Positions 4,341 to 55,942 of a stretch of 64,000 nt of DNA are shown here, in pieces (positions within the stretch are counted from its first letter, which is position 1; each line of letters starts with the position of its first letter). Position numbers and translations under genes: made by a program. Source of the DNA: Eledone cirrhosa (lineage: Eukaryota); the NCBI GenBank assembly GCA_964016885.1, contig OZ024745.1, positions 90,520,001 through 90,584,000 on the forward strand, written 5' to 3'. A model generated the notes under the pieces. That model was not told where the DNA came from. It searched no databases and saw only the letters and a list, made by a program, of their open reading frames with translations.

Positions 4341-4920
4341 CGTATGGATTCACCGAACATTTATTATAATGCTCGGTGTGTTTGTAAACAAACATCCCGA
4401 ATTAAGCCGTACAGTGTCTAGCAACCATCGTTGCTCATTTGTTCAACACTGACAAAGGAACGCTGTACTAGCTTCAAGCTTATTAGCTATCGTCAGCAAC
4501 GTATACCTTCCTGCCAGATGGTTGAACGTCTGAAAGTATATACTTTCCTTATGCATATTAACGGCTGAGCAGCCTAATTTGCATATCGAGTGAGTTAATC
4601 GGCCGTGAGAAATGAAATTTCGTTTCACTTTTTCCGTTTATCGTTTTCGTTACCCCGGCCGATTAACTCACTCGATATGCAAATTAGGCTGCTCAGCCGT
4701 TAATATGCATAAGGAAAGTATATACTTTCAGACGTTCAACCATCTGGCAGAAAGGTATACGTTGCTGACGATAGCTAATAAGCTTGAAACTAGTACAGCG
4801 TTCCTTTGTCAGTGTTGAACAAATGAGCAACGATGGTTGCTAGACACTGTACGGCTTAATTCGGGATGTTTGTTTACAAACACACCGAGCATTATAATAA
4901 ATGTTCGGTGAATCCATACG
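4341..4920. mobile_element. Palindromic non-coding element (265-bp arms, 50-bp spacer) in TA repeats
   Basis: 4341-4605 is the reverse complement of 4656-4920 with few mismatches. Confidence 0.9.
4760..4800 (+). ncRNA. Minimal type-I hammerhead ribozyme
   Basis: CGTTG-CTGACGA-t-AGCT-aata-AGCT-t-GAAA-CTAG-TA-CAGCG; stem I CGUUG/CAGCG, palindromic helix III ACUAGU, GUA site. Confidence 0.85.
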
Positions 4921-5192
4921 AACATATATATATGTGTGGATGTATGTATATGTGTATATATATATATATATATATATATATATATATATATATATATACA
5001 GTAGTATGCATATATATATATATATACAGTAGTATGTATATATATATATATATACAGTAGTATGTATATATATATATATATATATATATATATATATATA
5101 TATATATGCATACTACTGTACGTCTGTATACATATATGTATGTACGTATACATACTTATATATATATATATATATATATATATATATATATA

Positions 5193-5348
5193 TTCATCGG
5201 AATACTGATGATTTGGTCAGAGACACACTGTATTTAAGGTCGAGTGACGCAATTTCGAGTGATCAGCGGCCTTTAGACTCATCTGATCAATGAAACAATT
5301 ATTAATACTGTAAATAAAACCCTTTTTGTACAGCCGACCATGTTATTA
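5193..5348 (+). mobile_element. Solo PLE pseudo-LTR fragment with hammerhead (extended stem II)
   Basis: Homologous to the pLTR at 51488-51605; CTGATGA-t-TTGGTCAGA...TCTGATCAA-t-GAAAC. Confidence 0.7.
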
Positions 5349-6210
5349 TATATATATATATATATATATATATATATATATATATATATATATATATATC
5401 ATGAACGTCCACACATTTTCCATCAACCAAATTCAACTGACATGGTTTAGATCAGTAGAAGACACTTACTCAAGATGTCTTGAAATAAGATACGACTAGA
5501 AGCCACATATTTTCGAAGCATCTTACCTACAACCTACAACCTATAACTATTGACATCATCATTGTTTGCTTTTCTCTTAACAAATCGTATTCGACTTTAT
5601 CTGTAAGAAATTATTCTGTAGGCTGTCATTTTAAACCGTTAGTTATGTCGCTATGCCTCACCATAAAGACAGTAATACTGCACATTTCCAAATGAGCTTC
5701 TGACGTTATTTATGCAGTTGACTTAATCTCACTGCCATTTTCTACCTATTCATTAAAGTTTAGATGCATATCTATTTATATTTGCAGCTTAACCTAGTAT
5801 CTTTCACTTAACCTAGTATCTTTCACTCATTCTTCTCTCTCTCTCTCTCTCCCTCTCTCTCTCTCTCTCTCTCTGTATATATGTACATACATATATATAC
5901 ATATATATATACTGTGTATATATATATATATATATATATATATATATATATATATATACACAGTATATATATATATATATATATATATATATATATATAT
6001 ATATGTATGTACATATATATATATATATATATATATATATATATGGGGACGAGTATAAACAAAATTTGTTTTCGCTCCTCATATGGTTTATACCTAAATG
6101 TATTCGCGAGGGAATCTAAACTATAATAAAGTAAGGAGTGCGGGACTGCGTTCAAAACATTTTTTTTATCCCGTTTGTAAAATAAGCTGGATTACTTTGA
6201 ATAAATAATG

Positions 6211-6616
6211 ATTTCTAGTATAGGTACAAGGCCAGTAATTTTGGGGGAGGGGAAAGTCGATTAAATCGACCCCATTGCGTTATTGTTGCTTTATTTTATC
6301 GACCCTGTAAGGATGAAAGGCAAAGTTAACCTCGGCGGGATTTGAACTCAGATCATAAAGAGCCGTAACTCTATGCTGTAAAGCATGGCGTCCAACTCTC
6401 TACCGATACTGCCAATACATAATAATGTTCTACTTTTGACACAGGGCCAGCAATTACTCAGTACATTACTGGTACTTTATTTTATCGACCCCGTAAGGAT
6501 GAAAGGCAAAGTTAACCTTGGCGAGATTTGAACTCAGACCATAAAGGGCAGTAACTCTTCGCTGCAAAGCATGGCGTCCGACTCTCTACTGATACTGCCA
6601 ATCCACTGCCAATCCA
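6211..6616 (-). mobile_element. Two tandem tRNA-derived SINEs (family A, Nin/Deu-like core)
   Basis: B-box GAGTTCAAATC and GCCTTTCATCCTTACGGGGTCGATAAA core; many copies in the window. Confidence 0.85.
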
Positions 6617-6700
6617 TAATAATATTATAACATCAGCATTATTCACTCCCAAATACATACATGCTAGTATGTGTATATATGTATATATATACACATATAA

Positions 6701-52932: not shown

Positions 52933-53545
52933 CTGTGCGTATGTGTGTGCTGGTACGTGTACGTGTATATGTGCAGGCATGTATGTGTGTGTGCGGGTAC
53001 GCGTGTGTGTGTGCGCACGGCGTGTGTATGTGTTTAGGTGCGGGAGTACGAATACGTGCGTGTGTGTATGTGCGGAGGTATGTGTGTATGCGGGTTTGTG
53101 TGTGGCTCCGTATGAGTGTGTGTATGTGCGGGTGTACGTGTGTGTGTGTGTGTGCGGGTACATGTGCGAGTGTATGTGCGTGTGCATGTGCGGGTATGTG
53201 TGCATCTGTATGTGCGTGTATGTGTGCGTGTGTATGTCTGCGTGTGTATGTGTGCGTGTGCATGTGCGGGTATGTGTGCGTGTGCATGTTCGGGTATGTG
53301 TTCGTGTGTATGTGCGGGTATGTGTTTGTGTGTATGTGCGGGTATGTGTGCGGTGCGGGAATGTATGTGCGTATGTATGTGCGGGTATGTGTGCGTGTGT
53401 ATGTGCAGATATGTGTGCGTGTGATTGTGCAGGTGTGTGTGTGTGTGTGTGTGTGTGTGCGTGAGTGTGTGCGCGCTGGCACATGTACGTGTGTATGTAC
53501 GGGTATGTGTGTGTGTGCGGGGATACTTGTATGTGTGTGTGTGTT
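52933..53545. repeat. Complex (TG)-based minisatellite
   Basis: Recurrent ATGTGCGGGT units. Confidence 0.9.
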
Positions 53546-54320
53546 TCATCATATTTGAATTACATACATGTAATATACAGCCACCTTGATTAAGTCCAAT
53601 TGCCCCCTCCCCCCACACACACACCTCCATTCAACATCCTCCACCTTCCAAACTAACAAACAACCTTCACATTAGTTTATATATTCTGCAATGCAGGAAT
53701 ATTTCCTTTCTAAGGTATATTTATAGTAAGTCTATCCTTGTAGAAGTTATAGGTGAATAAAAGGTGTATTCACGGTTGAATAGCTAGGTGTTCACGGTTA
53801 ACGGCTCTCCTCTCACTTTACAACCACTCTTACAGACCTCGTCAAGCTGTGAGTGTGTTTCTCTGTGTACAACGTGTATGTATGTACGTGTGTTGGCGGG
53901 GGGGGGGGGTATGAGCAGCGTGTATGTATATATATATATAAATATATATATATATATATATATATATTTATATATATATATATATAAATTTAGCGAGAAT
54001 CGCATTTCGGCGGGTAGAAATTAGTGTAACGCAACTTCCGTATTGTGTAGACAAGCGCTCCGTGGATATGAAGATACCAGAGCTATAAACATAAGTTAAA
54101 AAGGTCATACAACCTGAGACGATGGTTAAGAAGCCATTAACCAACAGAGCCAAAAATGGTAACAAGCTAAACAGGTCAAACAAAATAAGATATGATTGAA
54201 ATAGTTACTCGGACCCTCGGGGAAGATGGACATATATATATATATATATACGTAGGTCCCGGGTTGAGTCGGGGATAACCACAGTAAGTAAGGTACTCAA
54301 TACATGGCAGAGTAAAATTT

Positions 54321-54464
54321 TTTTATTTTATAGAAGGAGCTTCTACAGGACTAGTACTGTTTCATTCAGATGAAATCTTCAGATGAAATCTTCAGGAGCT
54401 TCCTGAAGATTTCATCTGAATGAAACAGTACTAGTCCTGTAGCAGCTCCTTCTATAAAATAAAA
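54321..54464. mobile_element. Short near-perfect palindrome with hammerhead core (54403-54436 +)
   Basis: CTGAAGA-t-TTCA-tc-TGAA-t-GAAAC-AGTACTA-GTC; the 5' strand of stem I is lost at the axis. Confidence 0.75.
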
Positions 54465-55349
54465 TAAAAATATATATATATATATATATATATATATACA
54501 TAAAAATATGCATTTATATACTTATACACACACATATATATGTATGTATATATATACATATACATATGTATGTATATATATATATATATATATATATATA
54601 TATATATATATATATATATATATATATATATATATACATATATATATACATATATATATATATATATATATATATATATATTATATATATATATATATAT
54701 ACATATAGAGGAAAGAAAAACCCGACTGTGACGCCTAGCGGTTTCGGTTTCTATTCGACAAGCCTTTGTAAAGGTGTACTGAGGAGTGAAGAATTTTTCG
54801 CGAATTTAAGTAGGAACTGATTTGGGGAAACATGTCACGTTTAGGACTGGTCAGTTCAAACAGCTACTGGTTGCAGATTATGGCCAGAGATATCATTGTG
54901 AAAAGCTGGTCAAGGAATATAGCACAAGGCTAAGAAAGAGGATGGTGAAGGGGAAGGTATGGGGAAATAAAAGTAGGTCTGTCTATACAGGGACTGCAGA
55001 CTATCTATATATATATATACGGATTAACAAGGATTTAAATAAAATCCTTTAATTAATTTGCGGCCGTTTCGTTAAACTAACTGGGATGTTCCATTCCTGT
55101 TACAATATGCTCATCTAACTCGATTAAATACAAATAATATTTATCTTACAAGTCCTTACAAGAAATTAAAGTATAAGCAATTCGAATATTGTTAAGAAAA
55201 CTTTAAAACTTTATGGAAACCTAAAGACGCAATTAATATTTATCAGTGATAAAAATATAACGTTCAGTAACTAAAGATATTATACTAACTACTATACAAT
55301 GATACACATATACTACACAGAAAATTAGAGTTATATATATATATATATA

Positions 55350-55942
55350 TTTGTGTTGGAGCTCTGAAATAGCGATGTATATATGAATGTACGTATTGCA
55401 TATTTAATAATATACTGCATGTTTATTTTAAAACATTTTAAAGGCCTTTCGCTATGAATTTAAGGTAACGATTATAGTCACATACTTAGCTTCAGCAAAA
55501 CCAAAGGGAAATAACCGACGAACGTGTCTCTCTGTTTAGCGAGAAGCCTTCAAAATGTTTTTAAATAAACATACAGTATATTATTAAATATACAATGCGT
55601 ACATTCATATATACATCGCTATTTCAGGGCTTCAACACAAATTTCTAATTGTTGCTGGGCCGGCAACCGCTCTATATGTTAATAAGTTTAAACAGCTCAT
55701 AAACATAATTGGTATTCTATAAGAATCCAGCATCTACAGCTCACAGTAAAACCAGAGACGATATATAGACTTGATAACCGCTAAACAATGAGAAACGATT
55801 GTCGGTTATTTCCCTTTGTTTTTGCTGCAGCTAGGTATGTAACTATAGTCGCTACCTTAAATTCATAGCGAAAGGCCTTCAAAATGTTTTTAAATAAGTA
55901 TACAGTATATTATTAAATATACCATACGTACATTCATATATA
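55350..55942. mobile_element. Three-arm inverted-repeat element in (TA)n with decayed hammerhead
   Basis: 55350-55530 is inverted at 55537-55642 and 55800-55942; TTTTG-CTG..GCTA...TAGC-GAAA-GGCC-TT-CAAAA. Confidence 0.7.

Follow-up and report, generated by a model that had tools for sequence, protein, structure and literature searches.

A stretch of 64,000 nucleotides of Eledone cirrhosa DNA (positions 90,520,001-90,584,000 of OZ024745.1, from a genome of 3.0 Gb; the whole stretch is termed the window here) raises the question of how eight inverted repeats of unrelated sequence came to share one architecture, in which hammerhead ribozyme motifs point away from the axis of a palindrome lying in (TA)n. 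The initial annotation had treated the eight as a single new class of mini-elements. This description could not be kept, as each of the eight is a member of a repeat family, the families are several and have the published layout of Penelope-like elements (PLEs), and parents were found for part of them. The interpretation preferred here, to which we give a probability of roughly 85%, is that each palindrome joins 3' ends of a repeat family head-to-head, that there are several such families (a direct link to PLEs was obtained for two, and three consist of tandem units without an open reading frame (ORF)), and that the palindromes were written into (TA)n by PLE reverse transcriptase (RT) and endonuclease priming from both cut strands on one RNA.

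Palindromes and hammerheads in the window

Masked self-comparison of the window (BLAST) recovered all eight inverted repeats, termed E1 to E8, at the places where they had been described, and a self-BLAST with a word size of 11 gave no match among them, in agreement with their reported unrelatedness. All eight adjoin (TA)n, again as described. As for the reported lack of ORFs, the longest ATG frame was 14-61 amino acids in seven elements and 114 amino acids in the E1 region, which takes in the TA-like tail. Two further elements of the same kind, E9 and E10, had been overlooked. The ten elements are:

E1, 4341..5165: retrozyme-like tandem unit of 431 nt without an ORF, inserted head-to-head; inverted repeat 4341-4923, arms 94.5% identical; helix III ACUAGU, hammerheads 4466-4496 (-, with a mutated GAAA) and 4765-4795 (+); TA-like tail confined to the right arm (read by eye)
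E2, 11447..11735: head-to-head stub; inverted repeat 11447-11672, arms 95.2% identical; hammerheads 11488-11542 (-) and 11576-11631 (+); tail of ~62 nt on the right arm
E3, 12153..12582: head-to-head stub; inverted repeat 12248-12582, arms 95.0% identical; hammerheads 12298-12346 (-) and 12484-12532 (+), with U in place of C3 here; tail of ~92 nt on the left arm
E4, 12619..13849: tandem unit of 517 nt lacking an ORF, present in partial tandem and also inverted; inverted repeat 12623-13849, arms 97.7-99% identical; hammerheads 12847-12916 (-) and 13657-13726 (+), helix III ACUGUACAGU
E5, 37840..38452: head-to-head 3' end of a PLE; inverted repeat 37840-38403, arms 88.6% identical; hammerhead-shaped motif 38035-38064 (-) and 38158-38187 (+), non-canonical core CAGUUGA; tail of 43 nt on the right arm
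E6, 38614..39368: head-to-head 3' end of a Neptune-like PLE; inverted repeat 38736-39306 by BLAST (the earlier start of 38676 agrees by eye), arms 94.3% identical; U3-A8 hammerheads 38751-38780 (-) and 39262-39291 (+); tail of 62 nt on the left arm
E7, 54250..54468: head-to-head stub with its axis at hammerhead helix I; inverted repeat 54318-54468, arms 90.3% identical; hammerheads 54344-54382 (-) and 54403-54441 (+); tail of ~70 nt on the left arm
E8, 55350..55936: tandem unit of 330 nt lacking an ORF, in an old insertion with head-to-head arms; inverted repeat 55350-55936, arms 88.6-91.4% identical; true hammerhead (U3-A8) 55771-55803 (+), core lost from the left arm
E9, 26266..27487: same architecture as E1-E8, with (TA)n adjoining; hammerheads 26363-26446 (-) and 27387-27470 (+), both U3-A8, helix III long; tail of ~77 nt on the left arm
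E10, 7994..8270: inverted repeat, likewise beside (TA)n; decayed outward hammerhead 8109-8136 (-)

The axis of E2 (11528-11560) holds about two copies of a telomere-like CCCTAA repeat.

The outward polarity that had been reported for the eight was borne out, with hammerhead-shaped motifs facing away from the axis in every case, in both arms of E1-E7 and in the right arm only of E8. A type I hammerhead core (CUGANGA or the U3-A8 form, with GAAA, UH and three helices) was found for E1-E4, E6, E7 and E8. Among family copies, the window's own included, the canonical core was present in 20 of 25 for E1, 25 of 25 for E2, 14 of 25 for E3, 19 of 20 loci for E4 and 20 of 25 for E7. The E6 hammerhead, previously called decayed, is better described as the U3-A8 covariant, since the core of the family consensus is UUGAAAA. 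A short, mostly palindromic helix III had been listed as a common property, and this applies to E1 (ACUAGU) and fails for E7, where the helix is ACAG/CUGU with a loop; the 'AGGCCU' listed for E8 belongs to a different motif. The latter (near 55871-55880) lacks G8-A9 in 25 of 25 copies and was rejected as a ribozyme, having no canonical core in those copies and not being kept in a related family with an intact hammerhead. Alignment to this 310-nt relative relocated the E8 hammerhead to 55771-55803, with the core UUGAUAA (U3-A8) in 17 of 25 copies and a helix III of ACGAUCGU; the polarity remained outward. For E5, the family consensus core is CAGUUGA, the canonical core was present in 0 of 25 copies, and activity as a ribozyme is doubtful on sequence grounds. 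Helices I-III nevertheless stay in register, and a diverged sibling has the changes U4A and A6U just as the family consensus does, so that E5 may be either a dead ribozyme kept as a structure or an undescribed variant. Hammerhead variants associated with PLEs have reportedly been described by Lunse et al.

The descriptor used for these motifs allowed a bulge at helix II and included the U3-A8 core; a stricter first scan had recovered none of the eight elements because it demanded a base pair at the foot of helix II. An Rfam search of the window gave no hammerhead among the matches listed (150 of 363), which were mostly TA-repeat microRNA noise together with U6.

The analysis was then extended to a blind sample of 109 stretches of 10 kb taken at round coordinates (1.09 Mb in total), in which inverted repeats were scored if the arms were at least 40 nt and the spacer at most 400 nt. 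Hammerhead matches numbered 61, 24 of them from two tandem arrays, compared with 0, 1 and 3 in three shuffles of the sequence, indicating a frequency above chance. The sample contained 141 inverted repeats, and the hammerheads within them, from 13 sequence clusters, were outward in 25 cases and inward in none. A copy of the E10 family at another locus also scored as an outward hammerhead. The association with (TA)n likewise extended beyond the window, as 89 of the 141 had (TA)4 within 20 nt of an end (14 expected from random placement) and 10 had it at both ends (~1 expected). Taking all loci together, 118 head-to-head pairs (37 from the blind sample) stood against nine tail-to-tail pairs (five blind, four from selected loci); all nine have (TA)n between their ends, as separate insertions would give. 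By homology, two tail-to-tail cases were seen among the blind inverted repeats. At least 58 of the blind repeats could be assigned to the families described here or to a hammerhead, which corresponds to ~53 per Mb and, if extrapolated, to ~160,000 in the genome.

Ends, junctions and shared variants

Evidence on how the palindromes arose came from the positions at which their arms end. Each family has two discrete 3' end points ~25-100 nt apart (~100 nt in E4, where both are fixed), and in seven families (E2, E3 and E5-E9) one arm carried the long end and the other the short end in 102 of 107 classifiable head-to-head pairs. The 237 unpaired copies ended at the long site in 127 cases, at the short site in 98 and elsewhere in 12, and this use of both sites indicates that both act as primers. 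Rare variants were compared between arms. Across 110 pairs from nine families, 270 of 681 such variants (40%) were common to both arms of a locus, compared with 6% in copies from other loci, which favors two primings on one RNA.

The junctions between the arms were also informative. At 108 tight junctions, for which the upstream references of E2 and E3 were short, the short-ended arm reached further 5' in 44 cases and the long-ended arm in 12, and the two stopped within 8 nt of each other in 52; a zero gap or a small overlap was present at 50 of the 108. In E7 the axes concentrate at helix I, and in E9, a very common family, they concentrate in loop II. The hammerhead cleavage site itself was considered as the axis and rejected, as the E7 and E9 axes lie ~30-50 nt upstream of it, and there is thus no sign here that cleavage shapes the inserts. 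The initial annotation had suggested two priming events at a break, and both the long/short rule and the junction data agree with this.

One mechanism that would produce these insertions begins with the GIY-YIG endonuclease nicking both strands in (TA)n. One DNA end would then prime at the distal RT start site, giving the long, tailed arm, and the other would prime at the proximal site, giving the short arm. Both complementary DNAs (cDNAs) would often stop early, frequently inside the hammerhead fold, and would be joined with an overlap of 0-6 nt or with a few added bases. The hammerhead would face outward because it sits in the 3' pseudo-long terminal repeat (pseudo-LTR), next to the priming sites. 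E1, E4 and E8 would be retrozyme-type units, likely moved in trans by PLE machinery from multimeric or circular RNA. Published work is cited here for individual passages, and those on an Anolis PLE protein describe cutting and extension of both strands in vitro at an AT-rich target, a predicted dimer, two RT start sites that define the tail, and no need for hammerhead cleavage (PMC11167929). The dual priming proposed here fits that behavior.

It could be, alternatively, that the PLE machinery primes only once and that the cDNA then folds on itself, in the hammerhead or in a short palindrome, and serves as its own template as far as the target; in a variant of this idea the self-priming takes place on antisense RNA, as proposed in passages of PMC3846280, where head-to-head is given as the commonest inverted form of PLEs. 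Snap-back of this kind explains why variants are shared between arms, why the arms end within 8 nt of each other in 52 of 108 pairs, and why axes recur in hammerhead helices (E7 helix I, E9 loop II). However, a single folding strand predicts that one fixed class of arm will reach further 5', while here either may do so (44 against 12), and many junctions differ between arms by tens to hundreds of nt. The occurrence of both end types among unpaired copies (127 long, 98 short) is a further difficulty, and on balance we consider snap-back unlikely.

Repeat families and their parent elements

First-look searches of the genome returned 623 candidates for E1, 1294 for E2, 1370 for E3, 1653 for E4, 2681 for E5, 679 for E6, 100 for E7 and 1504 for E8; 40 candidates were scored per search and 20-25 loci were taken per family. 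Two groups of families could be distinguished, tandem units (E1, E4 and E8) and 3' ends of longer elements (the others). The units of E1, E4 and E8 are arranged head-to-tail (431, 517 and 330 nt, respectively) and are found in partial tandem, as multimers and in inverted pairs. In 25, 20 and 25 loci, respectively, with 1.5-kb flanks, the copies had no longer upstream sequence in common, as the units loop back on themselves, and no frame of their own with RT and GIY-YIG domains was found.

Parent PLEs had been suggested as something to look for, and the outcome was mixed: direct links were obtained for E5 and E6, links through relatives only for E7 and E3, and none for E2, E1, E4 and E8. Longer copies of E6 have an upstream frame of 524 amino acids that combines RT, a CX4CxxC linker and a GIY-YIG domain at its C-terminus in a single frame, as in endonuclease-bearing PLEs (Pfam GIY-YIG, E 6e-7; RVT_1, E 1e-6, just under the curated cut-off). 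Five copies of E5 extend directly upstream into a frame 77-89% identical to a sibling that is positive for Pfam GIY-YIG; for E5 only the GIY-YIG part of such a frame was seen. For E7, in one of two loci a related subfamily lies ~2.9 kb downstream of a frame that holds RT, GIY-YIG and a CxCX5C linker, and this frame is Hydra-like; the clade labels (Neptune-like, Hydra-like) come from linker motifs compared with passages of PMC8557442. Pfam gave nothing for two of four frames, and NCBIfam gave one weak RT match in four. In the E3 family, non-coding sequence extends upstream for more than 1.2 kb. The initial annotation had supposed extreme 5' truncation or non-autonomy, and this is supported, E5 and E6 being truncated PLE 3' ends and E1, E4 and E8 ORF-less units.

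The E7-related subfamily (L341-L364) appears very young, with at least 38 matches of equal score over 171 nt. It has a long microsatellite-rich upstream region and is a candidate for recent activity.

The window also holds an autonomous type of PLE, as follows:

48230..51910 (-): broken near full-length PLE with direct pseudo-LTRs at 48230-48461 and 51490-51711 (92%)
48288-48339 and 51548-51599: hammerheads of this PLE, one per pseudo-LTR, helix III ACAAUUGU

This PLE is a local example of the autonomous type and not the parent of E1-E8; none of its five protein fragments had a Pfam match. An intact solo type I hammerhead at 48025-48101 (+), also with helix III ACAAUUGU, faces the 3' end of this PLE across (TA)n and is probably a separate stub.

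A different view of the whole collection is that these are distinct short ribozyme elements, palindromic by design, that spread in the manner of miniature inverted-repeat transposable elements (MITEs) or foldback elements and independently of PLEs. The very many very short copies, the uniform look given by the recurring E7 and E9 axes, and the lack of a parent for E2 and for the three tandem units would all be expected. The fixed terminal inverted repeats and constant junction of MITE or foldback elements were, however, not found: the axis varies from copy to copy, the ends are asymmetric, and unpaired copies (237) outnumber head-to-head pairs (118). The arms are more alike within a locus than between loci, which indicates that each palindrome was built at insertion, and the longer E5 and E6 copies run into PLE frames. 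Palindromy by design is therefore very improbable. Finally, a fold-back artefact of sequencing or assembly, for which the long (TA)n context and hairpin-prone sequence offer an opportunity, can be set aside almost entirely, because the arms differ by ~1-11%, the tails are family-specific and asymmetric, the polarity rule holds, and opposite-strand joints of these families are seen in the raw DNA reads from another sample, in one case from five start places (weak evidence, with no read seen spanning a window axis).

Several observations nevertheless count against priming from both cut strands on one RNA, or narrow its reach. Later gene conversion between arms could be a source of the shared variants, and sharing between E8 arms was weak (12% against 3%). 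The long/short tally leaves out E1 and E4, 11 pairs in which an end was non-standard, and pairs whose arms have (TA)5 between them, and the tails of ~25-100 nt cover a wider range than the 30-40 nt in print. The other 81 of the 118 head-to-head pairs came from loci picked by similarity search. In the blind sample, 116 of the 141 inverted repeats had no hammerhead call, those beyond the at least 58 noted above were not assignable to these families or to a hammerhead, and 13 came from one satellite and four were pairs of short interspersed nuclear elements. Target-site duplications are unreadable within (TA)n. With regard to parents, no frame was found for E2 in 25 loci, and only an 80%-identical sibling of E3 is tied to a PLE frame (Hydra-like); a direct link between E3 and the upstream frames in two of three long loci (L237 and L238) was rejected, as other inserts intervene.

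The remaining features of the window include further pieces of mobile elements:

5197-5346, 11290-11356, 12022-12092 and 36349-37395: unpaired PLE-type fragments
1517-3045, 17900-21300, 28000-31050, 33240-34720 and 41349-42925: decayed RT fragments resembling those of long interspersed nuclear elements (LINEs), identified by eye from the sequence and internal repeats

The four unpaired fragments comprise ends resembling the window PLE, a tail of the E9 family and a decayed piece that shares 42-52% identity with the protein of the E6 parent. Some of the LINE-like fragments likewise end in (TA)n. In addition, an inverted repeat at 3066-3394, with 113-nt arms of 93% identity, surrounds a copy of the U6 small nuclear RNA (Rfam U6 at 3205-3305, 71.8 bits). 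Each arm joins the 3' end of U6 to a stretch that ends in an 8-nt tandem repeat and that we take to resemble a LINE 3' end; the whole may be a head-to-head U6-LINE chimera without a hammerhead. The genome has 162 U6-like candidates, many of them in an array on C19 with a period of ~1.8 kb.

Comparison with known elements and consequences

The head-to-head layout, the one-sided tail, the TA target and the opposite-strand pairs of hammerheads are all already in print. The PLE insertion unit is described as a partial tandem with an adjacent inverted, 5'-truncated copy, a tail that is frequently confined to one end, and targets in (TA)n (passages of PMC8557442, the legend of Fig. 2 among them). 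As described there and in PMC3846280, endonuclease-bearing PLEs (Penelope/Poseidon, Neptune, Nematis and Hydra) share with the elements described here 5' truncation, partial tandems, the head-to-head inverted copy, the tail at one end and the type I hammerhead in the pseudo-LTR, and the (TA)n target is a feature of Neptune, Naiad and Hydra. Head-to-head inverted 5'-truncated copies, a tail at one end and AT-rich or (TA)n insertion were all found in E. cirrhosa. Unlike the published unit, most copies are stubs of 50-300 nt per arm, at high density.

Opposite-strand hammerhead pairs 100-700 bp apart, attributed to truncated PLEs, and the U3-A8 core were reported by Cervera and de la Pena (2014, PMC4209133), in passages that also record little cleavage by PLE hammerheads even as dimers. 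The present hammerheads resemble those minimal ones in the many diverse families per genome, the palindromic helix III, the U3-A8 covariant and a base that stays unpaired at the foot of helix II. They differ in that helix III of E4, E7 and E9 has 3-5 bp and, judged from its sequence, could fold as a monomer, and the fixed CAGUUGA core of E5 was not seen in the passages of PMC4209133 considered. Non-LTR retrozymes have been defined and tied to PLEs (passages of PMC7229834 and bioRxiv 10.64898/2026.07.22.740005). Like them, E1, E4 and E8 consist of AT-rich tandem units without an ORF, each unit holding a single type I hammerhead, and range from partial dimers to long arrays; unlike them, the E4 unit is 517 nt, compared with the ~300-390 nt described in those passages, and the units carry the inverted-plus-tail signature of PLEs, the word 'inverted' being absent from the main text of PMC7229834.

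Young arrays of the 310-nt hammerhead unit related to E8 were seen at two loci, L217 (G000:C3:55000001-55010000) and L297. The former is a two-armed head-to-head array whose arms are 100% identical, with five units on one side, at least 12 on the other and 17 hammerheads.

Two primings on one RNA, with a junction formed via a short overlap, also occur in the twin priming of L1. There a more 5' segment is inverted and the 3' end is not duplicated; in the elements described here, by contrast, the 3' end is present in both arms, with the tail as the offset between them.

What is added here is the counted rule of one long and one short end, together with the variants shared between arms, neither of which was seen as counts in the passages of PLE literature consulted. 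No account of octopod hammerhead palindromes or of a counted long/short rule was found in a search that left subscription papers and supplements outside its scope (the supplements of PMC8557442 and PMC4209133 could include cephalopod families or the hammerheads described here). How PLEs make inverted, tailed insertions is stated to be unsolved in passages of PMC8557442 and PMC11167929. The genome offers thousands of natural insertion products with countable rules, namely a long end paired with a short one, a template common to both arms, a short arm that leads and stops inside the hammerhead fold, and these are open to the PLE in vitro system. The ORF-less units obey the same rules, which supports the view that retrozymes are passengers of PLEs; if this is true, retrozymes with the same signature would show their use of PLE machinery directly.

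Seven of the elements were folded and are predicted to be 76-95% paired. Octopus has an unusually high level of hyper-editing and double-stranded RNA potential, and Penelope is heavily edited in a lizard (passages of PMC5625713). We would tentatively take the proposed mechanism further, to a conjecture that we hold to be possible though doubtful: a single PLE ribonucleoprotein may use two fixed start sites on one RNA to prime both DNA ends, the polymerase at the proximal site usually leading and both stalling in the hammerhead fold, and may so build perfect hairpins routinely, the resulting 10^5 stubs being a main structural source of the long double-stranded RNA behind octopod A-to-I hyper-editing. 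The stubs are, in any case, a concrete candidate substrate for double-stranded RNA editing in octopods.

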